A stretch of 64,000 nt of DNA from Nemertoderma westbladi (lineage: Eukaryota; Animalia; Xenacoelomorpha): assembly GCA_032718475.1 (NCBI GenBank), contig JAUCBJ010002429.1, positions 1 to 64,000 of the forward strand, written 5' to 3'. This document shows, piece by piece, positions 41,637-61,934 of this stretch. Position 1 is the first letter of the stretch; the number at the start of each line of letters is the position of its first letter. A model generated the notes under the pieces. The model saw nothing but the letters and a program-made list of their open reading frames with translations. It had not been told where the DNA came from and did not search any database. Position numbers and translations under genes: made by a program.

Positions 41637-43087
41637 TCACCAAAATTAAATAAGAAGACTTGTTTTAATGAGAAAATATTCAAATACAGCTATAAATAAA
41701 ATATTTATAAAATTGTGCTGGTTTAGGGATGCAAATCTCCCTGACTTGCCAAATTTTCAATTAAGATAACTTTTCCTGCAGCCTTTGTTCAACTGAAAAA
41801 AATGTCCAGTCTTAAAGCTCTGCCGCGCCACGACGTCAATGTGATGCAGGAGGGCAGAGGTTGGCTTTTTCATGGTAATGCTGGAAGCCATATAAACCCG
41901 GTTTGAAAGATCAGATACAGATGACAATGTTGGCTTTTTGTCAAACAGAAGTCATATAAACTGGTTTATTTATATTTTTTAAATTATTCTCTAGTGAATC
42001 AATCAGAATACTTATTGAGACATAGTTCTTTAATTTGAATATCATATATCTGATGTTGGATATTTCCCAATAGCCATCAAATGGGCAAGGAAATACTTTC
42101 TCTGGAAATACCGCAGTAATATCTTTTACTTCAGGCTATTTCCACCTTAAGTTAGAGGTTTCATGAAATCTCGAAAGATGGTCAAAATTGAAATTATCCT
42201 AAACTTCTTCATTTTTATCAATACAGTATCCTAGATACCATTTTCTCAAATCCTTCTCTTCCCAAAGACTTATATAGGCCTACATTTCATTTACAGTGAT
42301 GGTATTAGTACAGTCACTGCTGGAAGGGAGAACAAGTAGGATCATTGGTCAATATTCTTATCTGAAAGAAGCACACACAGGTTTTAAAATCTTTCTTTAT
42401 GGCTGATCTTTATTAACTTAAGTAGTTCTGGTCTTGGAAAATTTCTGCCCTACAGTATGTGTGTTTCTATAGTAATTGAGTTCAGTTTTTACAATTTTTT
42501 CTTCAATCAATGGATTTTTGACAATGATGCCAAGCAGCGCTTCAACATAAACTACTGGCTCTCCCCAAAATTTGTATAGTTCCAACAACTTTGTAGTACC
42601 GGTATTTATCTTAAGGGCGGTTGCTTTTTTAGTTTTTTTTAGTATCTGGGATACTGTATTGATAAAAATGAAGAAGGTCAGGATAGTTTCATTATGGACC
42701 ATCTTTCGAGAGTTCATGAAAACTCTAACTTAAGGTGGAAATATCCTGAAGTGAAAGATATTACCACAGTATTTCCTTACCCAATTGATAGCTATTGGGA
42801 AATATCCAACATCAGAAACATGATATTCAAATTAAAGAACTATGTCTCAATAAGTACTCTGATTGATTCACGAGAGAATAATTTAAATAATATAAATAAA
42901 CCAGTTTATATGACTTCTGTTTGACAAAAAGCCAACATTGTCATCTGATGAATTATTTCACTATAAGATAGCATTTGTAGTTTAACTTTAACGTAAAAAC
43001 TTTCGAAAATCCGACGTATTTTGATTGAGTTACAGTAATGTAATATGCCTATTCATATTTGTACACATAAAACCCTTAGGTACTCTC

Positions 43088-43170
43088 GTGGCGTAGTGGT
43101 CAGATGGTTAAGGCGTTGGTTACATTACATAGGTTACGAGTTCGAATCCCAGTCGGGAAATTTGTATTTT
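43088..43170 (+). promoter_or_regulatory. tRNA-like Pol III A/B-box cassette inside the LTR (second copy 59447-59529)
   Basis: A box TGGCGTAGTGG (43089-43099), D-arm-like GTCAGATGGTTAAGGCG, B box GAGTTCGAATCC (43138-43149), T-run at 43167-43170; anticodon and acceptor stems do not pair. Confidence 0.6.
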
Positions 43171-43199
43171 GGGGCCATTTATTTTCGTTTGGTGCTAAT

Positions 43200-43480
43200 T
43201 GGTAGGCCAATGAGAAGCGTACAACGTAGCGGATGATGAGCCAGGCCAATCATAGGGCATAAATTATCTTATTGCTCAAATGTGAGGCAGTGGAAAATTC
43301 TGTTAGGATTCCATGTCCCAGATTAGTGTAAGGGCCGGACTGCGTTGAACGATGAGCTGGGCCAATCATAGGGCACGAAGCACTTTATTGCTCAAATGTG
43401 AAGCTGTGGAAAATTCTGTTTAGTTTCCATGTGCGATATTTAGTATAAAAGGCCGGTTTGACTTCTTATCACTTCTTATC
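43200..43480 (+). promoter_or_regulatory. Putative LTR Pol II promoter: three GGCCAAT boxes, ~115-bp tandem duplication, TATAAAA and Inr-like TCACTT
   Basis: TATAAAA at 43444; ATCACTT with A at 43471 (27 nt downstream); duplicated block ~43235-43350 / ~43351-43456. Confidence 0.55.
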
Positions 43481-46169
43481 ACCTTATAACCCCTTATAAC
43501 GTTATTCAAAATTGTTATTAGTTTATTTTCGGTTTCTTGTTGAAACTTTATTTGATAAATCCTTTGTAAAACTGTAAATAGACTGCAAATTCCTGAACAT
43601 GTTTTCTTTTGGTCCAACTTTGGGACAGCCAAACATCAGGGAGATGGCAGCCTAGACCGTTAGGCCGTAAGCAATGCAGGGAAGAGATGTCCACAACACG
43701 CTAGCGCCCACATTGGGTCGACCGCGCACCCCCTTTGCCCCTTCGAAATACTCCACTTGCCATGCAGCGCCCGCTTTGTGAGAAGGTAAGACTTTGTTCG
43801 ACGCCCTTGCCCGCCGTAAGACCTATAGATCAGGGTAAGCGTGACGCCGTACTGGACGCCGCAAATTTAGGATCAAATAATTATATTCAGACAGAAACAC
43901 CCCCCCTTTGTCATGTCCTACGAACCCCTGGGTTAACCTGTACTTCCTACAGGTGCGAACTATTGCCATTCGTCAGTACGCGAGTACATATTAGGTACGG
44001 ACAGCATATGTTCCATAATTTAGTGATTCGTAGCACTGACTGTTTGGTACCGGTTCGCTTTGTAGAACGTACATTAGTACCCCCCCCCCCCCCTGTCTGG
44101 AGTTAGCTATTTGATCAGGCAAGGAGCATTTCTGCTACCGGCACACTGCTTGGCCTAGGGAGGTTTATTAATATCCTACCGCGCCTTGCCACGTACTGAT
44201 AGGTATTGCTGCTAACTACCGCAGCAACAAAGTTCTAGAATTAAATTAGTATACCAGATCAGCTAACGTACGGTAGCAATAAACCCCTATTCTTATCTTA
44301 CAACCAGAATCTGGTATTAGTGCCGATCACGGGTGTAGTTACTAACACCGTGGTTGCCCATTGGGTTGTGGATAGGAAGGAGAGAGCTTTGACGTCATTT
44401 GTGAGTATAAAGTTCTACAAAACGCGACTAGTTTATTTTAGTAGCTAGCGCACGGTATCATTTAGTCAGAAAATCACTAAAACCTAGTAAAGGAATTACA
44501 CGAAATTGTTTTATTTGTAACACACCCACACACACATGCCCTAAAACAAATTGCCCTTAAAGTTCTACTAGCTATAGCGCACTATACATTACTTTAGGTG
44601 GAAATTATCTGTATTTGTAAAATTAGGATCTGATTTAGTTGCGGCAAGAGAGAGTATTTCATTTTCGTTATTAAACTGTTGTTTTCTGTCCAGCAGTTAT
44701 TGTTACATTTAGGCCTGACCCTTTAGACTGATTTCGTACAGGGGGATCAGTTATCGTTACATTTAGGCACGACTTTAGGCTGATTTAGACAGGGGTAATC
44801 AGCATTGTTACACTAGGTCTGTTAACCACCTAGTTCGTATATAAACCATATAAATCACACCGCGGCAAGTTACTGTATTTATGACTGTCAGTGATAGTTA
44901 GGATTCGCTGCGCAGGGATTGTTTTCCCGTGAGTTTGGTCTGTTACTGTAACTGTACATCTGCCTCACCTGTTAGAGGACAGGTATCCTTCTGTCTAGTA
45001 CGTAGGCATTAGACCCGCTCACGTACATAAAATAGATACTAGGCTCTGTTCCTCGCCAGTAGTCGTTTGTGTATTGTATCTGTTTGTTTAGATATCCTGG
45101 ACTGGGATTTGTTGTCAGATACTGTACGAGCCCGTATACATTACTAGAGTCTCATAGTAAGATACATCGTTACTAGGATCTGGTAAGCGGTATACTACTG
45201 GACCCTTACAGTAGGAAGTATTTATATAAATTAGTATATAGTATTTCCGCCGTAGCATACAGTATAGTTTAGAACTGTTAGCTATTGAAAGTAGGAGATA
45301 TTTAAAATTTAAGGTTAGTAAATTTAGTAATTTAGAACGTCCCCTGCTTCAGTAGGCTTTTAGGGTAGCTAGTACTTTCGTATTTAATATTTGACTAGCT
45401 AACAGTTAGTTTGTAGCACTTTGTTTTACGCCGTGTGTGTGCGGTGTTACTTTTCGGTACTTGAAAAGGTTCATAGGGTTTAAAGACCAATTTGTATCGG
45501 TACCTAGGAAGATTTTTCGTAAGCGTAGAAGTAAAACTCTCACCTTCGACCTTTTCAGGACTCAAAGACTCATTTCTGGACCGCTTCGAGGATTAGACCG
45601 CTTTTCGCAAAGTTTGGGCGACAATAAATTCGTCCGCGCCGCCGAAAAACGGAAAGACCCACGTCCGGTTTGTATTTGGGAATTTGTACGACTGGAAGAT
45701 CAAAGGAACGTAAGTTTTACGACTCGCGTCGTTCAAACTTAAGAAAGCACAGTAGTACTCAAAATTTGTGGGTTTCACTGTCTATTAGTAGTGTTGTTGG
45801 TACGTATTTTCCCGTTAGACGTTGCTGTTTGGCCTATTGTTTGTACTTGTTGATCTATATTTTGTTAACGTATACCGTTATCTCATTTATTCGTACAAAT
45901 TTAGCCGGTAGGCTAGATTACTACTTATTTTATTATATACCTTGTTAGTTTTATTTGTACCGGTTAGGGTATATATATGATATATATATATATCAAGGTA
46001 AGTTTGACATTTGTACATTTCGACATTTTGACATTTCGACATTCTGACTTGTTGATTTATTTGTACCGGTTAGGGTATATATGTACTATATATACCAAGG
46101 TAAGTTTGACACTTCAACATTCAGACACTTTGACATTTTATTACCCGTACTTGACGTATATAATAAGAC

Positions 46170-49100
46170 ATGAGTGACACACCCCATTCGACGAGATACC
46201 CACCTACCGACTATGACTTGTGCGACCCGTACAGATCGACAGTAGACGAACCAAGAAGGAGAACCCGAGATTCCACCGATGTCACACCGCTTGCGTCGCC
46301 GGTACCCCGAACGGAAATACCGGAAGCCGCAACGCGTGGCGACGGCAGAATCGAAGATTTCCTTACCGTCCCGCAGACTAGATCACGGGAACCGGACATG
46401 GTAAGTTCGACTGGAAGCCAGGAGAACGTTATTAGAAGTATAGGAGGACACATGGCCCAGATTACTCGGAACCTCGGAGAAGGTTTTCGCGTTTTACGCG
46501 AGTTAACCGCCCCGATGTCGAGATACGAGTTCTACACCTTACAGGTAAGGATAGAAAGTAGGGTACATGCCTCCGTAGATAAACTTAAAGGTTTGCACGA
46601 ACTTGCAGAGTTGCGTGGCGACAACTTTACTCAGGTAAAGATAGTAGATAAATTAGTAAGTGCGAGAGAAAGCATTATCCAGTTTAAGTCAGTAATAAGA
46701 TTGGCTCAAAAGGAGCAGTTTGACCAACTGCTAGGTGAGTCAGTTTCGGACGCGTTGTTACAACCCGAAGAGGAAGAAGAACTCTACTGCCTGGACGGAA
46801 GGTTGGAAACGCTGACCAATTTTCTTCGTAGATGCGGCGTACCGATCGACGAACCGGAAGTCGAACCGCGAGGGACGACGGAAGTTCTCACTACGGAAGG
46901 CTCGCGAGCCTACCAACATCCACCACTGGATAGATCGTTCGTTAGCGTACGGAGCGACGTTGGCAACGTTGGCGACGTTAGTAGAACAGCGTCTGGAATT
47001 ACTCGACAACAACAGGAGGTTGCACGCCGACAACAAGTCGCTGAGGAAGAAGCGCAACACCAGATGGCACAGATCGCCATCGAAGGAGAGAAACAACATA
47101 GAGAGGACGAGGCAAGAATTGCGCAACTCAAGGCGCAAGCCGAATTTGAAGCTTCGGAAATGCGCAGACTAGAGGAAAACTTAGCGCAAGAAGCGGCCGC
47201 GGCAGCAGCAGCGGATGAGTTAGCATGACAGACGGCAGCCGACGAGTTAGCACGGAAGAAAGCAGCATCCGACGCTCGCGCTAAGTTGGAGGCGCGACAA
47301 ATAAACGCACGTTTAGCTATACAGGAAGCGGAGTTAGCGGCACAACAACAAGTAGCGGATCGACGCGAAAGGGAGATGCAACTACAGTTCGAATTGAATC
47401 GTAGATCGCGCGAGACAGCGAACGCGCAAGCGGACCTCGAACTCGACGCGAGAGATAGATCTATAAGATCGCGAACTGGACACGACTTGTCTGCCCTGGA
47501 TCGTATGGAAGCTCGATATCGCGGAATACAGAAGCGGATCGAGGAAGGAAGTGTGGGAGCGATAGATCGAGGAGAGGAGTTCGTCGAGGATTACTGTAAA
47601 CGTTTTCCCCAAGTTATTCCTATGCTCAAACCCACGACTCCGATAAAACCGGTCTTCATTACGAAACCTAAGGAAATAACGCCTGTGCGTTCGACGCAAA
47701 GCAACAGGTTTGTTGTGACAGAAATACCGCAACCTAGGGCGACTTCATCGCCAATTTTAGCAGGTAACGTAACTAGTCCACCTACAGTAAGTCGTAGTCT
47801 ACTTGTAGGAAGAGAGGAACCTGCGTTTATGACCATTAAACAGGTGAGTAAACCATTACAAGTTAAACCTGTGACGTGCTGTGCAAATCCAGTTATTTAC
47901 AGACCGACTACGAAACCCGACTATTTCACTCGACCGTTGACACAATGTTCGACGCAACCTACGACTTCATGGAAGGCTTGCGAGCCTACCGAACTACGGA
48001 GGAGGATGGATGTGGGTAGTACCCACGGGATCGGACAACGTATAGCGAAACCTACGACTTCGTGGAAGGCTTGCGAGCCTACCGAACAACGGAGAGCCGT
48101 AGATTCCAGACCACAACGGACGAGACCAAGAATAATACGCCGGACACGAACCCGCCAACCACCTTATCCGGACGACGGCGATTCATCCAGTGACTCGGAG
48201 TCGACGGAACGGGAAATATTCCGTACTGGAGCGGCGGAAGATTATAAACGAGAGGAACGATCGACGAACCCCTATATCGACAATCCTCCACGAGAAACAC
48301 CCCAACAGAAACCCACGTTGCAACCAGCGGAAGCGATTAGCACCAACAGACTCGCCGAAATAATGCGACCTGTAGCGGACCGACTAGCTCAGATAGAAGA
48401 GCGACTCGAAGCGCAACCGTCGGATCGATCACGAACCAGCGTGGAGTTGGAACAACCTAGACAACATCGGCCACCGAGGAGAGAACAGGAGACTAGACGG
48501 ACTCCGACACATCGAGAAGAAGATCCCGTTAATAATTCCTACCGACGAACAACGCGCGGAAGGGAATGACTGGACGACGCCGCCGAACAGGGACGCGGAC
48601 AGTTGGATTTAGTTAGCGAGATTGCGAAATTCGCGGCTAGACACGGATTACCGGCACAGCAACCGCCGAAGTTGTCTGGCAACGCGAAACACTGGCGCAC
48701 ACTGGTAGACTACGTAGAGTCCCAGATCGCTAAGTGTGCTTTCACCTCGACGGAGAAGTTTAATTACTTGCTCCAAGTCCTGTCTGGTGAGCCGAAACGA
48801 TTAGCGGAAACCTTTATTGGTGTTCCCGATGCCTTTGAGTTGGCATACGACCGTTTGTATTCAATTTACGGCGGTAATGTCGCCATGGCTAAATCCATCA
48901 TTGAAGACCTCTGCAGAGGAGGCAACATTTCGAGACCGATCGACCTTTTACGACTCGCGGACGAAATAAAGAACGCTATAGGGACTTTACGGTCCATTGG
49001 ACAACTCGAGTACGCTAACGCACCGACGGTTCTCATTCGAATAATCGGTCGACTTCACCATCGACTACGAAGAGAATGGCGACGCATCGAGTACCAGCGC

Positions 49101-49439
49101 GAAGAGGCCGGAGGGTTATTAAAACTCACCGATGTCTATCAACTTATTTCACGGGAGGCCATGATCGAGACTCGATCGAACTATACCGATCACCATATCG
49201 CGGCGGAAGGGATAGCTGTTTCTGCGCCGACTCGGACAAAACCGTTTCCGACGAACGCGAAAGCCGTTACTTACGCCACCCCTACTGAGACTTCTAAAGT
49301 TCTGACGCCTATCGGCACCACGCAGCCACGACAACAGTTGCCGGCGGACTTTGTGGGATGCTCATACTGCGAGCGGAACGGCAGAAACCATAGCGGACAT
49401 AAACTACGTGGATGTCGCGCTTATAGGTTGGTATACTAG
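46170..49439 (+). pseudogene. gag: BEL/Pao gag (long coiled-coil N-terminus, DUF1759-like core, one Cys/His knuckle) with in-frame TGA stops ending at 47228 and 48569
   Basis: Three consecutive same-frame ORFs; LSGNAKHW...EKFNYLLQVLSGEPK...AYDRLYSIYG core; CSYC...H...C. Confidence 0.85.
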
Positions 49440-52400
49440 AGCACCAATACGTTCACTAGAGGTAAGTGACCAGGAGGACGACGTTTTGAGTACGTGTAGT
49501 TTATTGACTAACACGATAGATAATTCTCCTTCACACTCCTGTGGTCCAATTGTACGGACGGCATTACGACAGACTTGCGTCACTAACGCAGACGCCACCG
49601 ATACTGACGTAACCGATCTGGACACGACCATACGGACCTCTGACTTACAACTACTTGCAGTAGACCAGGTTGTATTGACTACTGAAGACCAAAGGGTTGT
49701 TGCCGTGGATGACTCGATGAACGAGGATTTTGGAAGGCTTGCGAGCCTACCGAAAAATCTGAAGGTCATTGACCCCACCCACCAGGCTTCGACACCGGTC
49801 GTTGATCTTGGAAGGCTTGCGAGCCTACGGACAGGTCAAGAAGTTGTCAAACCGCCGCACGACGATTCGACGCCGACTAGTGACACCGGAAGGCTTGCGA
49901 GCCTACCAGACGCATTGACACTAGCCACTGCAGCGGACGAAGACGTGGACGAGGACCATGGCGCAGTGCAAGCAGCGCTTGACCGACTGCTGACTGAACG
50001 GACCATACAATGGTTGGAACAGGACTCAGCAGAACCCGGTAGTTACGAGACCGCTATGTCAGAACAGGAAAAACGGTCATTAAATATTATGAGAGATACC
50101 ATTCGCCAGACCGCGAATGGCCACTATGAGGTTGGTATGTTGTGGCGCGATGGACAACCTAAGCTCGTTAACAATTACCCGCTTGCTTTGAGGCGACTCA
50201 AATCAATAAGGCAGCGATTGTTGCGAGACGAGATGGCCCATATGCAATACAATGCACAACTTCAGACGTATCTCCAAAAGGGATACGCCATTAGGATGTT
50301 AAATCCCGAGGTAACCACAGACCAGACATATTACCTGCCACATCATTTTGTTTGACACCCGGACAAACCTGGCAAGGTGCGTGTAGTCAACGACTGCGCT
50401 GCGCTTTACCAAGGGATGTCTATGAACAGCGAACTGATGGACGGGCCGAATATGAATAATTACCTCATGGGAGTCCTAATGCGTTTTAGACAACGCAAAG
50501 TGGCTTTCACCTGTGACGTAGAGGCCATGTTTCACCAGGTTAAGGCTTTGGAGCGGGACAGGGACAGTTTGAGGTTTCTTTGGTATCCGGACGGAAACTT
50601 ACAACTTCCGCCAGAAACTTACCAAATGCAGGTAAGAGTATTTGGAGCCAGGGACAGCCCCAACTGCACCATGTACGCATTGAAGCAGACAGCATTGGAC
50701 AGACGAGACCAATTTGACCCAGAAGTAGTTCGGACCGTGGAACGAGACTTCTACGTGGATGACGGCCTCAAGAGTTGTGACACCTTGGAGCGCGCTACAA
50801 CCGTAGCACACCAACTCCAGGATTGTCTCGCTGAGGGCGGATTTCACCTGACGAAGTTCGCTTCCAATGAACCCGAACTGGTGAACTCATTTGACCCGAC
50901 GGATCGTAGCGGAGGTGACTTAGACTTAGACCTAGAGCCTCTGCCGACGACCAAAGTATTAGGACTTAGTTGGGACCCTAACACCGACAATTTTAGGGTA
51001 CGTGTAAGGTCCAACGACCAGACTAGACCTCTCACTAAGAGAACTTGCTTATCGACCATGAGTCGATTGTATGACCCATTGTGTTTCATTAGTCCAGTGA
51101 TCCTACATGCTAGGATCATACTCCGCAGCATTTGGCAAGCCGGACTGGAATGGGACGATCCCATCCCAGAAAAGTTAGCTGAGCGATGGAGGGACTGGGA
51201 AGCCCAACTGACGTTCCTACAAGATTATACCATACCAAGGGTATACTTTCCTTTGCAAACCACCTTTCCTGCCGATTTAGAGCTTCACAGCTTTAGTGAC
51301 GCTAGCAAGGACGGATTGGGGGTTACCTTAAACCTTAGACGACAAGTGACATCGGACAGCTACGATGTATCTCTCGTTACTTCAAGGGCTAGAACAATGC
51401 CATTGAAGTATATGACTGTACCTCGTGGGGAGCTGCAAGCCGGGACGATATCCACCGATATTGTCAGTCTAGTTCAACGCGAGCTGGAGGCTAACTTGAA
51501 GGTCACATATTGGACGGATGCGACGTTGGTACTTTGGTACATAAACAACGAAACATTTGAGTTCAAGACTTTCGTAGCCAACAGACGGGCTGAAATACTA
51601 GACCGGTCGCTCAAACAAGATTGGCGTCACTGTCCAGGGAAGCTGAACCCAGCTGACATCGCGTCACGGGGGATGCAACCGCTTGACTTTTGTAAACCGG
51701 ACAATAAATCCTTTTGGTTTAGAGGACCCGATTTCCTACAGCGACCATCAGACGAATGGCCACCGTTATTCGACGCGACAACCAACACCATACCAGAGGG
51801 CGCCGAGATAAAACTCGACAAGGTTGTCAAGTCTAAAGCGAAAGCCAACGCCAAGGTCAAGAGGAAAAAAGGACGGACGAAATCTGATGACCTGGACGCC
51901 AGACCTGACATTACGCCAGACGTCTCGCCAGACACTCGACCAGACGCTTGTACGAATCCTTCGCCGGATGTTCCGCGGGAGATTACACCAGACGTTTCGC
52001 CGGATTGTTCACCAGATTACTCGCCAGATTATTCACCAGAAGCGACACCAGATTGTTCTCCGGATTGTACGCCAGATTGTTTGATGGAACTCTCGACAGA
52101 ATGTCTACCGGACGTCTCACCAGACTTTCCACCAGACATCTCGACAGACTGTCCACCAGACTTTGAACCAGACTTTCTGACAGAAGTTACGCTAGACAGA
52201 CTTTGGGACCGACGACAGGACATTTCGCCGGATGTTCCGCGCTATGTCTCACCAGACGTCTCACCAGACTGTTCACCAGACGCTTCACCAGACTGTCTAC
52301 TAGACACTCCATTAGAAGACCCATTAGAGCGGACTTTTAGAAACTTACCAAATTTGACTTCTTTGGACGACAAAGGTGTGGCCACAGGGATTACACTCCG

Positions 52401-52650
52401 CTCGAAGAAGGTACTTGACTTACCTACAGGTAAAGTGGTGACTAAGGTTAGGAAGCTTACAGGCTCACAGGAACACACTGACACTGTAGAGTTGAAACCA
52501 TTACTGCCAGTCGACACATTAGGTGCGGACGGCAAAGGTAAGACCGTAGAGATTGACGTACTTGGGGACTTAGACAAACCTACCGGGAAGGCCCGTGGGC
52601 CTACCAAGTCCAGACAAGTATACACACTACGACTACACCTTACCCGATGA
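49420..52650 (+). pseudogene. pol: BEL/Pao pol: RT and RNase H, in-frame stop ending at 50355, protease core apparently deleted
   Basis: GHYEVGMLWR, YYLPHHFV*HPDKPGKVRVVNDCAA, DVEAMFHQV, FGARDSP, FYVDD, KVLGLSWD, LYDPL, LHSFSDAS, YWTDAT, FVANR, NPADIASRG. Confidence 0.93.
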
Positions 52651-54172
52651 CGTCACTAACACTTACGTTGACAGGATAGTGAACCTAACTAGATCATGGA
52701 CTGACGCGTGCCGCAAGTTAGCATGGCTCAAACGATTGAGACAATATGCCAGAGGCAAACGCGACTTTCCTAGAAGACTTACCTTAAAGGAAATTGGCCA
52801 CTGTGAAGTTGATATCATTAGACATTATCAATTGCGATATTTCGCACGAGAGTTCACAGCGATCAAACAAGGTAAACAGATTAAGTCTTCACCGATTTTG
52901 AGTTGGAGTCCGATTATTTACCGGGGCTTACTTTGTCACAAGTCCAGACTCCAAAACATCGACTTTGCACTTGACTTTAGGTATCCTATCATCATACCGC
53001 AACACCATGAGTTACAGCGCGCTATGATACTGGACGCACATGTACAACTCAAACACGTAGGTAGACACCACTGTCTATCACACTTACGTTCGAGGTTTGT
53101 ACTGATTAGACCTAGTAAGGCACTGAGTTCGGTAACACGGAACTGTATTATTTGTAAGAAGGTGCACGCGAGGATAGGACACCAAGAAATGAGTGAACTA
53201 CCACTAGCTAGATTACAGGCGTTTAGACCCCCTTTCACTGAGACAGGGATAGACTGTTTTGGACCCATAATCGCGAAACGCGGAAGGGTACAGGTAAAAC
53301 GTTGGGGATTGATCTTCACTTGCATGGCCAGCAGAGCTGTCCATATAGAGCGAGTGACAGACTTGACCACCAATGCCTTTATCCTAGCCTTACGGCAATT
53401 TATCGCTAGACGTGGATTGGTCAAATCCATATACTGCGACCAAGGGACAAACTTTGTGGGTGCACGGAACGAGATAACCAGAGCTTTGAGAAAATTGGAC
53501 CAAAACCAGATTTCCGAGGAACTACGTCCTCACCGTATTGTTTGGTTTTTCAATACTCCAGACAGTCCGTGGAGAGGCGGCGTTTGGGAAAGGTTGATTG
53601 GCTCAATAAAGACAGCTATGGCTAAAGTCGTACCGACGCAACACATCTTGACAGACGACCAACTAACGACGTTACTAATAGAAATTGAAGCAATCTTAAA
53701 TACTAGACCGATCGCTTTGATCCCAGACAATAACGACGTACAGTTTGCCTTGACACCAGCGCACCTGCTTATGCAGGCGCCGATGACATTGTTGCCCATT
53801 TCGGTACCCGTTGATGGTGACGGATACGGCAACAAGGCTTGGAAAATCACTCAATTGCTTGCAAATAAATTCTGGGAAATATGGCAGAAATATTATTTGC
53901 CCTCTATTTCGACCAGAACCTCTTGGTATCTAAATACCCGATGTTTAAGACGTGGTGACCATGTTTTATTAGCTGAAGCCAATCTGAAAAGACGGTTTTG
54001 GCTGACTGGAGTCATTTTGACCACGCACCCTACATCTGGTGTAGTGAGGACAGTTACTGTACGGACTATCGACGGACGTACTGTAGATAGGCCTGTACAA
54101 TGTCTCGTGCTCCTTGAGGAGACTAGAAACGAGACGGGAGACTACAAATCTCCACCCAATATTAGTAAATAG
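52595..54172 (+). CDS. BEL/Pao integrase (HHCC zinc finger, DDE core, C-terminal domain), +1 frameshifted relative to RT/RNase H
   Basis: H..LKH.G...CIIC; GIDCFGP; IYCDQGTNF; GGVWERLIG; IEAILNTRP; LTPAHLL; FWEIWQKYYL. Confidence 0.95.
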   Translation: MGLPSPDKYTHYDYTLPDDVTNTYVDRIVNLTRSWTDACRKLAWLKRLRQYARGKRDFPRRLTLKEIGHCEVDIIRHYQLRYFAREFTAIKQGKQIKSSPILSWSPIIYRGLLCHKSRLQNIDFALDFRYPIIIPQHHELQRAMILDAHVQLKHVGRHHCLSHLRSRFVLIRPSKALSSVTRNCIICKKVHARIGHQEMSELPLARLQAFRPPFTETGIDCFGPIIAKRGRVQVKRWGLIFTCMASRAVHIERVTDLTTNAFILALRQFIARRGLVKSIYCDQGTNFVGARNEITRALRKLDQNQISEELRPHRIVWFFNTPDSPWRGGVWERLIGSIKTAMAKVVPTQHILTDDQLTTLLIEIEAILNTRPIALIPDNNDVQFALTPAHLLMQAPMTLLPISVPVDGDGYGNKAWKITQLLANKFWEIWQKYYLPSISTRTSWYLNTRCLRRGDHVLLAEANLKRRFWLTGVILTTHPTSGVVRTVTVRTIDGRTVDRPVQCLVLLEETRNETGDYKSPPNISK

Positions 54173-54979
54173 ATGTGGGACCTTTGTTGGCCGCCACATA
54201 GACCTACTGTATTTTAGTTATTTGTATTTGTATTACTGTACGTGCATTTGTAATCCTCTTCACTGTAGATAGAGACAGCGGTGGAATTCCATTGTCTTTA
54301 TACGTGAACATGGAGGGTAGTACCCTTATGTATCACATAGGAGCGGGATTGTGTGTACAGTAGGAATGGAATTCCACTTGGAACCCACAAGTGAGACAAT
54401 TTTCAAAAATTATTAGACAAATCCATTTATTTGGATTTAAATTTAAGAAAACGATTCTCCAGTGAAAGCAAATTCTAGAATACAGCTAGATAAAATTAAA
54501 ATTGGGGAGGACAAGAGCGGATGGAAGGCTTGCGAGCCTACCGATAAATTTTTTTTGGAAAAAGAAAATCGGCCTTGTTCTACGTAGTCGTGTCTACTAT
54601 TATTTAGACCAATTAATTCTCGACTGCACTATTTTTCTTGGGAAACGTAGTTTGGGAAATTAAAAGGTGAGTATTTTAGACTCGCGGCTAGTTTACCCGG
54701 AATTCGTTTTTTATCGGCACATTTTTTGGATTAGGAGCCAGTGCGAAATCACGCGAACCCGAAGTCATTAGGCAAATGGGTTGGGGTTTAGAGCAGAGTT
54801 GAGCCAAAAGCCGACAAACTCTAAGTCACCTCACATCTAACCTCTATTTTGTGCTTCATCTAGTAGAAACGTAACGATATGTAACCGCATATATTCATAT
54901 ACGATGGCGGAGAAGATGTATAAAGAGTTACGTCAAGGGTTTACGCAAGAACAAGAGCACCAGGCGCCATTCAATCGTT

Positions 54980-57880
54980 ATGGTATCGATTAGTGTGTTT
55001 GGAGTGGAGAGTATGGCTAGGAGTACGGCCAAGCTCGCTAAATCCAAGGCGGACCCGAATGTTACGCGACAGCGGTTGGACGCATACAACAAAAGAACGG
55101 AGGAATTACGCGCGGAATACAATGCGTTATATCCCTACGATGCGTTATGCGACGCTAGCGACATTTGCGAGGATCCAGACACCGAAATACGCCGATTGTA
55201 TCATACGCTGCAATATTTGACGGTAAACGAACTCTTACCTGCAGCTAGAGACGAATTTGAAGGAATGCATCTTTATAGACGCGCTCGAGGAGCGGATCCA
55301 GAGACCAAGGACGCGTTTTCCGTATACAAACTGTTTTATAAATGTGGAGCGTGTATGCGCGAGCAAGACAACGCGATTCCTATGCGGTTGAACTCGGAGA
55401 ACCCCGAGCCGATATTAGCGCGATGTTCACACCACCAAAGTCTACGTTACCAAGAAGGCGGATACCCTTTGACAAATCCGTATCATTCATTTAAGATGAG
55501 TGGACCGAACGCGGGTGAGATCGTTATTTACGAACCTAAATTAGTCGAACCAGACGTCTACAGCATGGTAGTGGACGAGTCTAATAAGTCGACACAAGAG
55601 AAACGGGAAGCTTTGAGCCTCTACAGGGCGTACAAGGCGTACGAGAAAGGTGAGATCGAGGAGTTCGGCGGAAGGCTCGCGAGCCTACCATTCTATTGGA
55701 TATCCCACGATCAAACCGAACCCAAGGAGATGACACCCGAGCTCTTCGATAGTATCACCTTTGCTCAGCGTTTGTCGCAGAGACTACAGATACCTCATGT
55801 CGAGATGACGCGAGAACCTCAACCCCATTCTACTGGAGCGATAGTACCGGTTGCGAGACCAACTAGTTTTCCTATTAGTATACCGACCCGGAAGGAGACA
55901 ACTTACGAGATCCCTATAGTTGAACACCCGGAGATCATCTCGAACCTGGATTTCCTCCCATCGGTTACCTTCGGTGATGTGTTAGAATCAACCGAGTTGC
56001 GTAAAGTAATAGTTCAAAAAATCGTACGCAACGTGCCTCCACATATCACGGACTTTAAGGAAGTGGATCGCGCGGGGACGGATATCGCACCTTGTATCTT
56101 GCGAGGATATCTGACGAAAACGATTCGATTATGGATCGGAGTTGGGACGTTTGAGACCGACACCGATATCGCGACCAATTGGACCGGTAAACCTATTAGT
56201 TTCGATGACGAAAAGTCGATCGGGAGAATTTGGAAACCTACCGACGATTTACTCGACGATTGGGACGTGACTAGCCGATCTCTGAAAGAGAATGGATATA
56301 TGTTTTATGATAATGAAGGAGGAAGCCATCAGCAAAGCCTCACTTCAAAGACTATACAGATTAGAGCACCAGATGGCGTGTTACATGTCTTCAGCCGACA
56401 GAGGAGTGATAGGAAGATGCCTATGCCGGAAGGAACGACGCAAAGACACGCGATGATAAAACGGATAGTTAAATCCATGGACCTGGCTTGTAGCATAGAA
56501 GCTAGGATGTTGCCAAAGGCCGTGCGAGACGTTGTGTTGGATAAGAGCATCGTCAAGATCGGATCCGGTGTACGGGATGACCTCATTAGCGACTTTGCAG
56601 GGATGCCCACGGAAGAGGACCGATTGCCTACGCCATACGTGGATACTAGACCATTGTTGCTTTGGGCTATTGAGCAAGGATACTTTAGAGAGTATAACAC
56701 GCTAAAAACTGGAACGGGTTATATCTCATATCTGATGTTCAGTTGGGATTACAAGGAGAGTAAGAGGAACAAATACACGGACGTATACGGAGAGGGAGAT
56801 ACCCCCGGCGTAAACGAGTTTGATTCACAGTTGAAGTGGCGAGGTTGCGTGTATTGGGCGATTACTTCACCTCCGCGGATAATCTTACAATACTATTTAG
56901 CGATAGAATCTTCGGTTAACGTTTGTTTCATCGCGGACGTAGTATCCAGAACCTTAAAGCGACACCCGTTATGTCTTGGCGAAGGACATACCTTTTACGA
57001 TGGAGGAAGGACGCATACCGATGTATTCCGACGATTTCTCCAACCCTTTTATAACACCGATGCGCACTGCGAAGTTTTCACGCGAGCGGGACTTAGTGTT
57101 TTCAGGGACGTCTATCTCACTCACGCGGGAAGTCTAGTCGACAGACCGTCGATGTTAACGTTAGTACCCTATGACGGGGAACGCCACGCGGAATTCGAAC
57201 GCCCGGAAGGATCCTGGAAGGCTCGCGAGCCTACCGCCCATCATGACGATGTGGATCCGACCGAGTTGGCGCTAATAGACGAACCGTTACGGCAACTCAT
57301 AGAAATAGAGGAGAACCTTCCGAGGAAGATGCGAACTGAGATACGCGAGTTAGAGAAAAGCGATGCCATGGTTTGTGTACAACCTACGGAGACGAACATA
57401 CCGACTGACCCGGATGATGAGAATTATCACGTGGACGGTAGCGCTCGCCCCATCGGAGATCTCATCTATGAGCGAGTTTGGTATCCTGCCAACACTATTT
57501 GTGGCAGATGTGGAGCAACTGGCCATAACGCAAAGAAGTGCGGAGCGAAGCACATATCTCTACCGGATTTAGTATGCAACTGGTGCGGGGATCAACGTTC
57601 GCACACTTTCTACACTTGCTGGCGTTTCGTGGCGCAGTGTACTTATTGTAATATTAAGGGCCATAGGGCATCCGAATGTCAACTTAGAGACGTCCCCTAT
57701 GAGCACATGTCAGTTAAAATCGTTCGACAATTATTCGACCATTGGGAGGATCTAGCAGATGAGCATGTATCGACGCAGCGACGCCGCTTCCCTATGAGAG
57801 CACATTTGGGATTTTGGGCCGTAAACCCTCTCATAATGTCAAAGGAAGGATATGTATCGGCTATGCCTCAGTACAAATGA
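54980..57880 (+). CDS. Extra retrotransposon ORF3: DEDD-type 3'-5' exonuclease-like domain plus three CCHC zinc knuckles, 966 aa
   Basis: TIQIRAPDG.LHVF, LPKAVRDVVLDKSIVKIGSGVRDD, YVDTRP, LQYYLAIES resemble WRN/EXD2-type exonuclease motifs; knuckles at 57500-57541, 57575-57619, 57638-57679. Confidence 0.7.
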   Translation: MVSISVFGVESMARSTAKLAKSKADPNVTRQRLDAYNKRTEELRAEYNALYPYDALCDASDICEDPDTEIRRLYHTLQYLTVNELLPAARDEFEGMHLYRRARGADPETKDAFSVYKLFYKCGACMREQDNAIPMRLNSENPEPILARCSHHQSLRYQEGGYPLTNPYHSFKMSGPNAGEIVIYEPKLVEPDVYSMVVDESNKSTQEKREALSLYRAYKAYEKGEIEEFGGRLASLPFYWISHDQTEPKEMTPELFDSITFAQRLSQRLQIPHVEMTREPQPHSTGAIVPVARPTSFPISIPTRKETTYEIPIVEHPEIISNLDFLPSVTFGDVLESTELRKVIVQKIVRNVPPHITDFKEVDRAGTDIAPCILRGYLTKTIRLWIGVGTFETDTDIATNWTGKPISFDDEKSIGRIWKPTDDLLDDWDVTSRSLKENGYMFYDNEGGSHQQSLTSKTIQIRAPDGVLHVFSRQRSDRKMPMPEGTTQRHAMIKRIVKSMDLACSIEARMLPKAVRDVVLDKSIVKIGSGVRDDLISDFAGMPTEEDRLPTPYVDTRPLLLWAIEQGYFREYNTLKTGTGYISYLMFSWDYKESKRNKYTDVYGEGDTPGVNEFDSQLKWRGCVYWAITSPPRIILQYYLAIESSVNVCFIADVVSRTLKRHPLCLGEGHTFYDGGRTHTDVFRRFLQPFYNTDAHCEVFTRAGLSVFRDVYLTHAGSLVDRPSMLTLVPYDGERHAEFERPEGSWKAREPTAHHDDVDPTELALIDEPLRQLIEIEENLPRKMRTEIRELEKSDAMVCVQPTETNIPTDPDDENYHVDGSARPIGDLIYERVWYPANTICGRCGATGHNAKKCGAKHISLPDLVCNWCGDQRSHTFYTCWRFVAQCTYCNIKGHRASECQLRDVPYEHMSVKIVRQLFDHWEDLADEHVSTQRRRFPMRAHLGFWAVNPLIMSKEGYVSAMPQYK

Positions 57881-58655
57881 ATTGTTGGAGTTATTGGATA
57901 TATTGCCGTTGGACAGTGGATTCAAAGTTGTGCGGGACTATTTCTTACAAGTGCACCCCGACAACAAGAATACTTGGAACTTTCAAACTGTGGTGAACAA
58001 GATTACCGCCGGAGAATTCGATAAACTGCGAGTTGAACAGCGGAATCGAGGAGCCTGGCATTCGATAGCTTGGGCATACCGGAGCGCATTTTATCACAAA
58101 CGCGTAACCTCGTGCATTCTGGACGAGACCGACGTTTTGCGTGAGACTGGCTTCAAGGCCACGCCGTTAGCGGAGAAGACGCGTCACCCACAGGATGATC
58201 AGCAATTTCGTATACTCAAAGCCCAGAAGGCCGGACAAGAGATTAAGAAGATAGTGAATGTCGCCGAGAGGACGACATCGAAGTCGCAAATCCGGATGAC
58301 TCGGGGCACGGTTTCCCTTGCTAGAGAACCACGCGGAGGGACAGGATACGCTTTGACTGAACCCATTAGGATTCAAACGACGTCAGAGAGCGAGGTGTCA
58401 ACGGACGGAACGGTCCTACCTTTTCGACTTCCTCCTAGCATTGTAGAAACTCGATCCGATGTTAAGCCAACAGTTGGAATCGGACGAGGATTTAGAGGAT
58501 TAAGCGCACGACGGATGTGCGAAACTCCCGTCGTCCCCTTTCCTAGCGTTTTGGAACCACCGACGACTCGACGCCGAAGTCCGAGCCCAGTTCGACCTCG
58601 ACCACCCCCCAATCGCACTAGAGGACGTGGACGAGCCCGTTCAGCGAAGGAATAG
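57852..58655 (+). CDS. ORF4, 267 aa, overlaps the end of ORF3 in the +1 frame (possibly its frameshifted C-terminus); basic Arg/Pro-rich tail
   Basis: Open frame overlapping ORF3 by 29 nt; ends RRRSPSPVRPRPPPNRTRGRGRARSAKE; no recognised domain. Confidence 0.5.
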   Translation: MYRLCLSTNELLELLDILPLDSGFKVVRDYFLQVHPDNKNTWNFQTVVNKITAGEFDKLRVEQRNRGAWHSIAWAYRSAFYHKRVTSCILDETDVLRETGFKATPLAEKTRHPQDDQQFRILKAQKAGQEIKKIVNVAERTTSKSQIRMTRGTVSLAREPRGGTGYALTEPIRIQTTSESEVSTDGTVLPFRLPPSIVETRSDVKPTVGIGRGFRGLSARRMCETPVVPFPSVLEPPTTRRRSPSPVRPRPPPNRTRGRGRARSAKE

Positions 58656-58689
58656 AAAGCGAGTGGAAGGAAGGCTTGCGAGCCTACCG

Positions 58690-58790
58690 ATTTGGATATT
58701 ATATTTGGATATTATATTTGGATATTTTATTTGGATATTATATTTGGATATTTTATTTGAATATTTATATTGGACATTATGTTTGAATGT
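58690..58790 (+). repeat. Short tandem TTTGGATATTAT(A) repeat bracketed by two copies of the 20-nt hairpin
   Basis: About 7 units of 12-13 bp between the hairpins at 58669 and 58819. Confidence 0.85.
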
Positions 58791-59304
58791 TGGGTTTGGA
58801 AGGAGCGAGATATGGAAAGGAAGGCTTGCGAGCCTACCGTTAGCAATTGGTGCTCAGGAGAAGATATCCAGACCAGCAGGACGAACTATTAGATCGTCAG
58901 GAGGACATTATTGAAAGTTATTAGCGCATTATGTTTATATTATATTTGGACTGATTTAATTTGGTGAAGGTTTATTATGTATATTTACAATATATAAAGA
59001 TTTATCGAAAGAGTTTGATTTATTTGTTTGATTTGTTTGATTTATTTGTTCTGATTTGTTTAATTTGCTTACCTTGATAACCGAAAGCCTTTTTTGTATT
59101 TTAGGCACTAAAGTTAATTCGTAAATTTGTATTTGTATGTACGATCGATTGTATTTACGCCGTATCTGCAATATTAAGTATGCAATAATTAGATAGTGAT
59201 TATATTTTATATTTTAGGCCCTACCAGTAAATTTAGAAATAGTTTGTAAATATTTTATATTTCGATTGGTGAAAACAGTCTTACTTACTGTTTTCATGGA
59301 GCGG

Positions 59305-61569
59305 TGATGAATTATTTCACTATAAGATAGCATTTGTAGTTTAACTTTAACGTAAAAACTTTCGAAAATCCGACGTATTTTGATTGAGTTACAGTAATAT
59401 AATATGCCTATTCATATTTGTACACATAAAACCCTTAGGTACTCTCGTGGCGTAGTGGTCAGATGGTTAAGGCGTTGGTTACATTACATAGGTTACGAGT
59501 TCGAATCCCAGTTGGGAAATTTGTATTTTGGGGCCATTTATTTTCGTTTGGTGCTAATTGGTAGGCCAATGAGAAGCGTACAACGTAGCGGATGATGAGC
59601 CAGGCCAATCATAGGGCATAAATTATCTTATTGCTCAAATGTGAGGCAGTGGAAAATTCTGTTAGGATTCCATGTCCCAGATTAGTGTAAGGGCCAGACT
59701 GCGTTGAACGATGAGCTGGGCCAATCATAGGGCACGAAGCACTTTATTGCTCAAATGTGAAGCTGTGGAAAATTCTGTTTAGTTTCCATGTGCGATATTT
59801 AGTATAAAAGGCCGGTTTGACTTCTTATCACTTCTTATCACCTTATAACCCCTTATAACGTTATTCAAAATTGTTATTAGTTTATTTTCGGTTTCTTGTT
59901 GAAACTTTATTTGATAAATCCTTTGTAAAACTGTAAATATACTGCAAATTCCTGAACATGTTTTCTTTTGGTCCAACTTTGGGACAGCCAAACATCAGGG
60001 AGATGGCAGCCTAGACCGTTAGGCCGTAAGCAACGCAGGGAAGAGATGTCCACAACACGCTAGCGCCCACATTGGATGGACCGCGCACCCCCTTTGCCCC
60101 TTCGAAATACTCCACTTGCCATGCAGCGCCCGCTTTGTGAGAAGGTAAGACTTTGTTCGACGCCCTTGCCCGCCGTAAGACCTATAGATCAGGGTAAGCG
60201 TGACGCCGTACTGGACGCCGCAAATTTAGGATCAAATAATTATATTCAGACAGAAACACCCCCCCTTTGTCATGTCCTACGAACCCCTGGGTTAACCTGT
60301 ACTTCCTACAGGTGCGAACTATTGCCATTCGTCAGTACGCGAGTACATATTAGGTACGGACAGCATATGTTCCATAATTTAGTGATTCGTAGCACTGACT
60401 GTTTGGTACCGGTTCGCTTTGTAGAACGTACATTAGTACCCCCCCCCCCCCCTGTCTGGAGTTAGCTATTTGATCAGGCAAGGAGCATTTCTGCTACCGG
60501 CACACTGCTTGGCCTAGGGAGGTTTATTAATATCCTACCGCGCCTTGCCACGTACTGATAGGTATTGCTGCTAACTACCGCAGCAACAAAGTTCTAGAAT
60601 TAAATTAGTATACCAGATCAGCTAACGTACGGTAGCAATTAACCCCTATTCTTATCTTACAACCAGAATCTGGTATTAGTGCCGATCACGGGTGTAGTTA
60701 CTAACACCGTGGTTGCCCATTGGGTTGTGGATAGGAAGGAGAGAGCTTTGACGTCATTTGTGAGTATAAAGTTCTACAAAACACGACTAGTTTATTTTAG
60801 TAGCTAGCGCACGGTATCATTTAGTCAGAAAATCACTAAAACCTAGTAAAGGAATTACACGAAATTGTTTTATTTGTAACACACCCACACACACACGCCC
60901 TAAAACATATTGCCCTTAAAGTTCTACTAGCTATAGCGCACTATACATTACTTTAGGTGGAAATTATCTGTATTTGTAAAATTAGGATCTGATTTAGTTG
61001 CGGCAAGAGAGAGTATTTCATTTTCGTTATTAAACTGTTGTTTTCTGTCCAGCAGTTATTGTTACATTTAGGCCTGACCCTTTAGACTGATTTCGTACAG
61101 GGGGATCAGTTATCGTTACATTTAGGCACGACTTTAGGCTGATTTAGACAGGGGTAATCAGCATTGTTACACTAGGTCTGTTAACCACCTAGTTCGTATA
61201 TAAACCATATAAATCACACCGCGGCAAGTTACTGTATTTAGGACTGTCAGTGATAGTTAGGATTCGCTGCGCGGGGATTGTTTTCCCATGAGTTTGGTCT
61301 GTTACTGTAACTGTACATCTGCCTCACCGGTTAGAGGACAGGTATCCTTCTGTCTAGTACGTAGGCATTAGACCCGCTCACGTACATAAAATAGATACTA
61401 GGCTCTGTTCCTCGCCAGTAGTCGTTTGTGTATTGTATCTGTTTGTTTAGATATCCTGGACTGGGATTTGTTGTCAGATACTGTACGAGCCCGTATACAT
61501 TACTAGAGTCTCATAGTAAGATACATCGTTACTAGGATCTGGTAAGCGGTATACTACTGGACCCTTACA
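59305..61569 (+). repeat. 3' LTR, 2265 bp
   Basis: Direct repeat of 42946-45210, preceded by a short purine-rich GGAGCGG. Confidence 0.97.
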
Positions 61570-61934
61570 TCATCTGTATCTGATCTTTCAAACCGGGTTT
61601 ATATGGCTTCCAGCATTACCATCAAAAAGCCAACCTCTGCCCTCCTGCATCACGTTGACGTCGTGGTGTGACAGAGCTTTAAGACTGGACATTGAACAAA
61701 GGCTTGTAGGAAAAGTGTATCTTAATTGAAAATTTGGCAAGTCAGTGAGATCTGCATCCCATAAACCGAGTTACTAGCTAAGAACTAGCTAGATTCTGTA
61801 CTGCTGAACTGCACTACCGACTGCACTATCCAAATGCTGATACTGATAATTCTACTGCCTACTGGTACTGCTGTACTGTGTTCTGGCTGAACCCCGAAGC
61901 CTGAACGCTAACGCCCCTGCACTCATAGCTAGCT

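Follow-up and report, generated by a model that had tools for sequence, protein, structure and literature searches.

Single-stranded RNA viruses such as MS2 carry multiple dispersed packaging signals, which are variable around a motif and graded in affinity (PMC6281560). In Rous sarcoma virus (RSV), the UGCG tetraloop of muPsi is bound by a CCHC knuckle of the nucleocapsid (PMC8833184, 10.1101/2023.11.30.569461). Among retrotransposons, fungal GalEa Copia elements, which have no tRNA primer-binding site, contain a Conserved Hairpin Site with a strictly conserved A/A mismatch (PMC5445492), and the Juno and Vesta LTR retrotransposons of bdelloids encode a DEDDy ORF3 (PMC5408684, whose main text mentions neither a hairpin nor a stem-loop). 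In Arabidopsis, VANC, the anti-silencing protein of VANDAL DNA transposons, acts with a 9-bp non-palindromic DNA motif that is mainly non-coding (PMC5735166).

The locus described here, a BEL/Pao element with 12 copies of a 20-nt near-palindrome, lies in a 64-kb window, i.e. the whole stretch of Nemertoderma westbladi DNA that was analysed. As in MS2-type systems, numerous short stem-loops sharing one motif (here predicted, 12 copies in 8 clusters) run through coding RNA, and the proposed reader is the element's own structural protein. However, MS2-type signals belong to ssRNA viruses, vary in sequence and span a range of affinities, whereas the motif of this LTR retrotransposon is invariant in 15 of 20 columns and shows no graded variation. 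The likeness to RSV muPsi consists of the UGCG loop, found in 8 of the 12 copies, and of element-encoded CCHC knuckles; it covers the loop, not the stem or the A.A mismatch, and RSV is described with one such loop in its 5' leader signal, in contrast to 12 dispersed copies and none in the leader. The GalEa hairpin also combines an A/A mismatch with a location inside an LTR element, but it is single, directly follows the 5' LTR and has a variable loop of 12-41 nt, instead of 12 copies inside the element, all with a loop of 4 nt.

With VANC/VANDAL, the element shares a family-specific motif in many same-orientation copies, an encoded accessory protein and spread by local duplication, although here the motif is a 20-nt near-palindrome, 9/12 coding, in an LTR element. 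Like Juno and Vesta, it has a third ORF downstream of pol with a DEDDy-like exonuclease region; those are different LTR lineages, the likeness is one of ORF position and putative exonuclease type, and ORF3 here adds three CCHC knuckles. Finally, retroviral dimer initiation sites are likewise self-complementary hairpins able to form an intermolecular duplex (here a cofold prediction). They are described as single leader sites with the palindrome in the loop (PMC5445492), whereas in this element the near-palindrome takes up the entire 20-mer and recurs along the genome, and instead of lying near the primer-binding site in the 5' leader, the first copy is 1.7 kb inside the element, within gag.

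Host element and motif copies

The host is a young LTR retrotransposon of 18.6 kb (the median for BEL/Pao is 7.4 kb), with LTRs 99.3% identical and a 5-bp TSD. Pfam domains follow the Pao-type order of gag (DUF1759), RT, RNase H (Peptidase_A17), integrase and DUF5641, and PF05380 is present in all of the best 120 relatives listed, at 33-47% identity. Together with the ORF3 knuckles and exonuclease-like region, these features uphold the initial annotation of a BEL/Pao host with a knuckle/exonuclease-like ORF3. A family-specific insertion of ~270 codons lies between RNase H and integrase. Pfam gave no aspartic protease match between gag and RT, where this element copy is broken and relatives align only from 49954. 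The gag-like frame of this copy is interrupted by in-frame stops at 47226-47228 and 48567-48569, and pol by a stop at 50353-50355 and a frame change near 52574-52650. The element also holds many other short tandem repeats.

Table 1. Features of the BEL/Pao element and positions of the motif copies in the window
Feature	Position	Strand	Remarks
5' LTR	42946..45210	+	2265 bp, TG...CA ends; TSD TCATC just upstream; no motif copies
gag-like frame	46167..49439	+	DUF1759 in last part; C-terminal end has one partial knuckle-like Cys/His stretch
Copy 1	46895..46914	+	loop CGCG; gag (EGSRAY)
Copy 2	47971..47990	+	loop UGCG; gag; local duplicate of copy 3
Copy 3	48064..48083	+	loop UGCG; gag
pol region	49306..54172	+	three pieces: RT, Pao RNase H (Peptidase_A17), insertion, integrase, DUF5641
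Copy 4	49732..49751	+	loop UGCG; before RT (GRLASL); opens 78-nt-period triplet; extended lower stem predicted
Copy 5	49810..49829	+	loop UGCG; last base G
Copy 6	49888..49907	+	loop UGCG
Copy 7	52586..52605	+	variant, closing pair C-G, loop CGUG; at end of RNase H-integrase insertion; hairpin disfavoured in context
Copy 8	54523..54542	+	loop UGCG; non-coding, between pol and ORF3
ORF3	54875..57880	+	1001 codons stop to stop; orphan
Copy 9	55670..55689	+	loop CGCG; ORF3, upstream of exonuclease-like region
ORF3 exonuclease region	~56225-56953	+	DEDDy-like, from ESM Atlas lead and motif reading
Copy 10	57216..57235	+	loop CGCG; ORF3, between exonuclease-like region and knuckles
ORF3 CCHC knuckles	~57497-57682	+	three
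ORF4	57837..58655	+	272 codons; different frame from ORF3, whose end it overlaps; C-terminal tail basic; no family
Copy 11	58669..58688	+	loop UGCG; non-coding, after ORF4
Copy 12	58819..58838	+	loop UGCG; non-coding, before 3' LTR
3' LTR	59305..61569	+	15 mismatches, 0 gaps to 5' LTR; then TCATC; no motif copies

A motif scan recovered all 12 copies at the positions and with the letters first reported, including the G that ends the copy at 49810 and the 52586 variant, and agreed that they share one strand and are absent from the LTRs and the rest of the window (12/12 sense, 0 elsewhere in 64 kb). All minus-strand matches are these 12 sites seen from the opposite strand, and no further site within 6 mismatches of the commonest copy occurs on either strand of the window. 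Dinucleotide shuffles gave a mean of 0.02 matches and reached the count in 0/100, in a post hoc test with a pattern built from the copies themselves and a very large margin. Of the 13 plus-strand YGYG loops in the 64 kb with at least 4 Watson-Crick closing pairs, 12 are motif copies. Eleven of the 12 copies have at most 2 letter differences over 20 nt, and interior variation is confined to the loop pyrimidines (C/U) and one symmetric pair. The loop G's are invariant in 12/12, a strand-asymmetric pattern though both are CpG sites, and the A.A mismatch is kept in every copy.

Outside the element, the motif is absent from the LINE ORFs of the window and from 13/13 distant BEL/Pao loci, and its signature peptides are absent from 120/120 of the Pol relatives listed. 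Rfam returned 4 chance-level matches, none on the motif. Scans of IMG/VR (4 and 22 loci) and of metagenomes (101 loci) gave a single match per locus; tblastn found no BEL/Pao protein in 105 motif-matching loci, and there were no BEL/Pao relatives in IMG/VR. No published description of such a dispersed-hairpin system in BEL/Pao was found in a search of literature mostly outside the subscription journals. An assembly artefact was rejected, since the copies have different flanks and several studies contributed runs with contigs that cover the region. None of the public runs listed as carrying it is an RNA run, which says nothing about expression. Internal tRNA primer sites were likewise discarded (a T precedes just 6/12 copies, and a T-arm complement is absent by eye), as were tRNA genes (0 found).

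Predicted folding and pairing

Folding prediction reproduces the proposed isolated hairpin, with its A.A mismatch, stem and tetraloop, at -7.6 kcal/mol (-9.6 for the variant). In context (span <=60 nt), the predicted hairpin probability is 0.82-0.96 for 9/12 copies and weaker at 47971 (0.35), 49810 (0.61) and 52586 (0.04). The variant at 52586 does have the closing pair changed to C-G, as first reported, but it carries three changes and a CGUG loop, and the hairpin is unlikely in its context. As a covariation signal, the compensatory change is not statistically significant, being a single event matched by shuffles in 274/500, and a DNA palindrome would be kept by it equally well.

The loops had been assigned to the UNCG or YNMG tetraloop class, whose extra-stable form has a C-G closing pair. 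UNCG fits 8/12 copies and YNMG 11/12, while CGUG falls outside YNMG; the closing pair is U-A in 11/12, and the sole C-G closes the CGUG loop. All loops (UGCG in 8, CGCG in 3, CGUG in 1) are YGYG, so that any two copies can zip into a 20-bp duplex, and all three types are self-complementary on sense RNA via G.U pairs. Cofold predictions favour the sense-strand duplex of common copies over two hairpins by 15.5-19.7 kcal/mol, compared with 7-10 kcal/mol for the variant with other copies and just 7.7 kcal/mol for antisense UGCG pairs. At equilibrium, neighbouring copies are predicted to cross-pair (P=0.99) rather than to stay hairpins. This predicted inter-copy pairing ability is absent from the initial annotation and is added here. 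The shared orientation of the copies does not prove a role at the RNA level.

Coding context and spacing

As originally read, the copies occur in all three frames (EGSRAY, WKACEPT/WKAREPT/GKARGPT, GRLASL) and in non-coding DNA (9 and 3 copies, respectively); a protein-level repeat is rejected by the use of three frames. Frames stay open across the coding copies although a length of 20 nt is not divisible by three, and the 6-9 synonymously changeable sites per coding copy are nearly all unchanged. Local duplications gave 47971/48064 and 49732/49810/49888, and probably 58669/58819 too; the 12 copies form 8 clusters, amount to ~8 independent sites and are spaced at ~1.7 kb. In four neighbouring pairs, the motif is identical at 19-20/20 positions against 27-37/60 (45-62%) in the flanks, a difference with nominal P from 6e-5 to 1e-7 that assumes homologous flanks. 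Gaps between clusters (1122-2776 nt, CV 0.33, the largest spanning RT/RNase H) are more even than random (P=0.004, or 0.008 given the merging rule). The use of three frames, the poorly conserved stretches in which the copies sit, the motif outlasting its flanks and the even cluster spacing point to selection at the nucleotide level, and the claim of nucleotide rather than protein constraint is thus supported, the unchanged synonymous sites included.

Some family members are without copy 47971 or 58669, as judged from low-depth joints. Among the family-copy differences, no motif copy is hit by the 40 listed of 1265 substitutions (~0.7 expected by chance) or the 12 listed of 64 indels, and none of the 15 listed of 194 joints has 20 letters fitting both sides.

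The ORF3 protein

ORF3 appears from its sequence to be an orphan DEDDy-like, three-knuckle protein. Its middle part scores 0.93-0.94 in ESM Atlas, with 24/30 matches in the PF01612 set (recognition 2710), while Pfam, NCBIfam and PDB gave no sequence match for it, and AlphaFold single-sequence models have pLDDT 33-34. DEDDy exonucleases are defined by the acidic motif patterns ExoI, ExoII and ExoIII. Candidates picked by eye are FYDNEG, KIGSGVRDD and QYYLAIE, the last acid being E rather than D. Homologue searches found one match (E 2e-4), confined to the knuckles, and otherwise none, phages included.

Interpretation of the copies

The reading to which we give roughly even credence is that the copies are dispersed RNA tags, presented as predicted hairpins to an element-encoded CCHC knuckle protein. 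The 20-nt tags would fold as small hairpins with an A.A mismatch and a YGYG loop, and binding by the zinc-knuckle protein would cause the long element RNA to be marked, compacted and either packaged or protected. The reader may recognise the A.A and the two loop G's, all of them invariant; that a protein reads the mismatch is suggested because a pure pairing role would tolerate, or even favour, loss of the mismatch. Under the tag explanation, the knuckles of the Gag nucleocapsid would be the slightly more probable reader, with the three ORF3 knuckles close behind. Given the 5 copies downstream of pol, tagging would distinguish element RNAs from host RNA more than full-length RNA from the ORF3 message. 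New copies would likely come from short local duplications, retained only where the protein tolerates them. The tag explanation draws on the sense orientation of all copies, their absence from the LTRs, the frame use, even spacing and motif persistence set out above, the invariant loop G's, the predicted local hairpins of most copies, an unusually long element that itself encodes knuckles, and the precedents of the RSV knuckle on a UGCG loop and of dispersed ssRNA virus signals. Against it, covariation is no better than in shuffles, the variant fold is unlikely, two other copies fold weakly in prediction, some family members are missing a copy and neighbours are predicted to cross-pair; shared orientation is also seen in VANDAL21 DNA motifs and follows from direct-duplication spread. 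Furthermore, retroviral packaging signals usually lie in the 5' leader, which has no copy here, the copies are near-identical whereas viral dispersed signals vary, and the independent sites number only ~8, with no conservation across families in the distant BEL/Pao loci.

Pairing could itself be the function, the copies being dimer-linkage or compaction sites at which nucleocapsid-chaperoned hairpins refold to a 20-bp duplex within the same or a sister RNA. Self-complementary loops, the predicted duplex gain and cross-pairing would all fit, and a need to pair with any partner would account for the near-identity; this is nevertheless quite unlikely, as such pairing is expected of any near-palindrome, the A.A mismatch persists although pairing would be stronger without it, the variant is a poorer partner for the other copies, and dimer initiation hairpins are described as occurring once, in the leader, with a palindromic loop (PMC5445492). 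It is also rather improbable that the copies are DNA sites, in which GGWAGGC half-sites in inverted repeat with a 6-bp spacer would be bound by a dimeric host or element protein, e.g. a VANC-like anti-silencing factor as in VANDAL transposons, on integrated DNA or single-stranded cDNA. All interior variation does fall in that spacer, and VANC21 motifs likewise belong to one family, occur in many copies of a single orientation and have spread by tandem repeats, but they are described as mainly non-coding, against 9/12 coding copies here (PMC5735166). The LTRs have no copies, the spacer G's are invariant while the opposite-side C's vary, the spacer change is symmetric, and domain searches recognised no DNA-binding domain in ORF3 or ORF4. 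CpG observed/expected is high in gag, ORF3-4 and the UTRs (1.35-1.47 vs 0.74 in window positions 1-42945), yet the window's LINEs are not CpG-depleted either (0.92-0.99), which leaves little sign of methylation to counter.

It is very unlikely that the hairpins recruit a host RNA-binding protein through which element RNAs would be exported from the nucleus, localised to the germ line, stabilised or translated: host proteins are known to bind stem-loop zip codes (PMC11499389), and with copies in gag, pol, ORF3 and 3' non-coding sequence each likely message would carry some (candidate splice donors considered), but the motif has no Rfam match and is missing from other elements, i.e. the distant BEL/Pao loci and the LINE ORFs, in which such a signal would be expected. 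Very unlikely, too, is a neutral micro-repeat: slippage or template switching of reverse transcriptase would have copied a small palindrome within the element, and conversion would have homogenised copies that only linkers tolerate. The initial annotation had listed a tiny spreading palindrome as its alternative. Local duplications account for at least 4/12 copies; copy number varies between family members, other short tandem repeats abound in the element and placement in unconserved stretches is equally expected of neutral inserts. It is weakened by the open frames, by the decayed flanks of duplicated units whose motif did not decay and by the even spacing, and a comparable dispersed repeat is absent from 11 BEL/Pao loci of >=5 kb. 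Nor do the copies look MITE-like, with a 3-bp direct flank repeat at 1/12 only, one orientation and 0 copies outside the element in the window.

Significance

How LTR retrotransposons choose and compact their RNA is known mainly from a few yeast and fly models, and we know of no demonstrated target for non-envelope ORF3 proteins, e.g. DEDDy exonucleases. With a defined, near-invariant 20-nt signal in 12 copies and candidate reader domains in one element, both questions become open to direct tests. An unlikely but specific extension is that ORF3 reads the 20-nt address to shield or licence the RNA of the element, with addresses able to switch to 20-bp inter-copy duplexes that fold or dimerise the genome; if true, this would be a self-marking system new for LTR retrotransposons, in a genome over twice as long as usual. 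If the tag explanation is true, animal LTR retrotransposons would join ssRNA viruses in using dispersed-signal RNA recognition, with signals far less degenerate than the viral ones, and this would hint at the way in which retroelements manage genomes of such length.

Distribution and sequence of the motif

A degenerate-pattern scan of the window recovers twelve plus-strand copies of the 20-nt near-palindromic motif, the same set that the initial annotation had reported. There are 23 pattern matches in all, 11 of which are the same places seen from the minus strand, and the expectation from shuffled sequence is 0.02 matches on average. No further site lies within six mismatches of the commonest copy, which bears out the reported absence of copies from the LTRs and the rest of the window. 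When structure alone is sought (a YGYG loop and at least four Watson-Crick closing pairs), 12 of the 13 plus-strand sites in the 64 kb are motif copies. Of the 20 columns, 15 show no change; the first loop position is U in 8 copies and C in 4, the third is C in 11 and U in 1, the closing pair is U-A in 11 and C-G in 1, and the last base also varies. The motif edges are sharp, since the mean pairwise identity of the flanks is 0.28. The bases just outside the copies never form Watson-Crick pairs (U.G 6, C.A 3, A.G 2, G.A 1), which is not significant with so few independent copies.

Features of the element and its insertion site (positions in the window)
Feature	Position	Remarks
Foldback inverted arms	41918-42097/42768-42947 and 41801-41924/61570-61693	
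5' LTR	42946-45210	2265 bp, TG...CA
Motif copies (starts)	46895, 47971, 48064, 49732, 49810, 49888, 52586, 54523, 55670, 57216, 58669, 58819	plus strand
ORF3 + ORF4	54875-58655	downstream of pol; ORF4 overlaps ORF3
3' LTR	59305-61569	2265 bp, TG...CA

The host element

The likeness of the LTRs (15 mismatches) and the TSD TCATC identify the BEL/Pao element as a recent insertion of 18.6 kb, at the long end of a range with a median of 7,382 bp and a largest LTR of 2,427 bp (PMC3118150, supplement 9). DUF1759, Peptidase_A17 and DUF5641 are above the Pfam cut-off, the RT and integrase zinc-finger matches are weak, and no protease domain is detected in the element. Among the best 120 listed, Pol relatives are 33-47% identical, the named ones coming mostly from marine invertebrates. 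This copy is broken: stops interrupt it at 47226-47228, 48567-48569 and 50353-50355, and the reading frame changes around 49306-49439 and around 52574-52650. Runs belonging to four studies yield contigs over the element region; their numbers (18,003 in run X1, 8,313 in run X4) and wide identity range are consistent with a large family, depth not being equivalent to copy number.

CpG is enriched in gag (46167-49439) and in ORF3-4 with the UTRs (54875-59304; observed/expected 1.35-1.47), with 0.97 in pol and 0.88 in the LTR. BEL/Pao Pol is also encoded on 13 contigs filed in prokaryotic genome bins, which look like animal host contamination. The element sits in a foldback-like repeat (41801-42947, 61570-61693). 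Elsewhere in the window, a large inverted duplication (~1700-18400/28100-37400; many blocks 86-99% complementary) encloses two ORFs, one of a LINE (20817-23429) and one, without introns, for a ubiquitin-conjugating enzyme (24513-25118).

No tRNA-type primer-binding site lies directly 3' of the 5' LTR (45211-45260). The internal region opens with a 10-mer whose exact reverse complement is LTR 43941-43950 (~0.003 expected per LTR), resembling the Tf1 self-priming layout; at equilibrium this pairing has a predicted probability of only ~0.01, a long A/U-rich hairpin being predicted immediately after the LTR instead. The LTR stretch also resembles a 3' splice site, and there is one identical 10-mer beyond the element, at 31659.

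Probable constraint on nucleotides

Nine copies lie in coding sequence and together use all three phases; each has 6-9 sites open to synonymous change, so that protein cannot account for motif identity and the constraint is probably, as initially proposed, on nucleotides. The proposed linker placement stands where relatives align, no copy falling inside the conserved cores of gag3 (the last, DUF1759-bearing gag part), RT/RNase H or integrase; in the gag N-terminal parts and ORF3, to which no relatives align, it is putative. The triplet (49732/49810/49888) is upstream of the aligned part of pol. The variant copy, 52586, lies at the end of a ~270-codon insertion without counterpart in 82 relatives and just touches the start of the integrase-frame piece, a place that 17 of 120 alignments reach. 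This insertion, between RNase H and integrase (51850-52650), carries 12/24-nt Pro-Asp-Cys-Ser repeats; the median length of this stretch in the 82 relatives is 0 residues.

The gaps between the eight clusters of copies measure 1122-2776 nt (CV 0.33), a spacing more even than random at P=0.004 if the ends are fixed and at P=0.008 once the merging rule is allowed for. None of 13 distant BEL/Pao loci, 115,670 bases in total, has the motif within five mismatches, no comparable dispersed repeat occurs in 11 such loci of at least 5 kb, and IMG/VR and metagenome scans return single matches only. As a control, 59 long loci were compared irrespective of their kind, and 2 of them have a 12-mer at four or more well-spaced places.

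Competing explanations

A neutral repeat would find support in four neighbouring copy pairs whose flanks are identical at 27-37 of 60 positions, above background, indicating local duplication (58669/58819 is the weakest case, and composition may contribute). Low-depth joints in run X4 also show that copy 47971 or copy 58669 is missing from some family members; single copies within a pair are therefore dispensable. However, the motifs have kept 19-20 of 20 positions beside these diverged flanks, and we regard neutrality as very unlikely. A DNA-level site is improbable, if somewhat less so. The isolated hairpin has a modest predicted stability (-7.6 kcal/mol), the same for either strand, so its energy cannot choose between RNA and DNA. 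The C-G pair annotated as compensatory is present in 52586, but it is a single event, does not beat shuffles (274/500) and would equally preserve a DNA palindrome. Nor does the single orientation prove RNA, since VANC21 DNA motifs are also arrayed one way (PMC5735166) and direct duplication preserves orientation. RNA is favoured by the absence from both LTRs, the coding location and the asymmetric loop change, in which C's change to U and G's never change.

Within a 60-nt pairing span, local hairpins are predicted for 9 of 12 copies (P 0.82-0.96), with weaker folding of 47971 (0.35), 49810 (0.61) and 52586 (0.04). One RNA reading of the loop asymmetry is an RNA-RNA zipper, as YGYG would let any copy pair with any other through G.U. 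The predicted duplex of common copies is 15.5-19.7 kcal/mol better than two hairpins on the sense strand (7.7 for UGCG pairs, antisense), and neighbouring copies are predicted to cross-pair at equilibrium (P=0.99). The invariant A.A mismatch argues against pairing as the sole constraint, and the zipper seems to us no likelier than the DNA site. The likeliest explanation, to which we give an even chance, is that the copies are dispersed RNA tags for a knuckle protein encoded by the element, either Gag nucleocapsid or ORF3; a host protein as the reader is about as doubtful as neutrality. Tag and duplex would be compatible, the hairpin acting as a protein tag on nascent RNA and the duplex forming after chaperoning.

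Candidate readers and known systems

In the other RNA reading of the loop asymmetry, the two exposed loop G's may be what zinc knuckles read; in RSV, a nucleocapsid knuckle is reported to bind a guanosine of a UGCG tetraloop (PMC8833184). ORF3 has three CCHC knuckles (weak Pfam matches) and no significant relatives except over them. Its middle region is grouped with DNA_pol_A_exo1-type 3'-5' exonucleases (ESM Atlas 0.85 for the whole protein, 0.93-0.94 for the domain), and exonuclease motifs are discernible by eye against the expected patterns, making a 3'-5' exonuclease-like region a lead. The ORF4 tail is basic and Arg/Pro-rich. The literature searched has no DEDDy-type ORF3 in any BEL/Pao element; such ORF3s are described in the rotifer Juno and Vesta elements, where the main text does not mention hairpins (PMC5408684).

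By membership criteria, the motif fits neither a leader dimer initiation site, nor a MITE-like insert, nor a canonical UNCG/YNMG element, the loop type to which it had been assigned. The motif would work in the manner of dispersed packaging signals (PMC6281560); the present copies are far less degenerate and their binding is putative, and the motif is not filed as such a signal. Like the motif, the GalEa Conserved Hairpin Site keeps an A/A mismatch and goes with the lack of a primer site; it is single and LTR-adjacent, unlike the multi-copy motif (PMC5445492). In agreement with the initial annotation, the literature searched describes no repeated signal of this kind in BEL/Pao, a matter on which subscription journals and the PMC3118150 sequence supplement may bear.

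Because five copies follow pol and there are candidate splice donors upstream, the tags would not tell genomic RNA from an ORF3 message; they would mark, and compact or protect, an element RNA of 16 kb or more.
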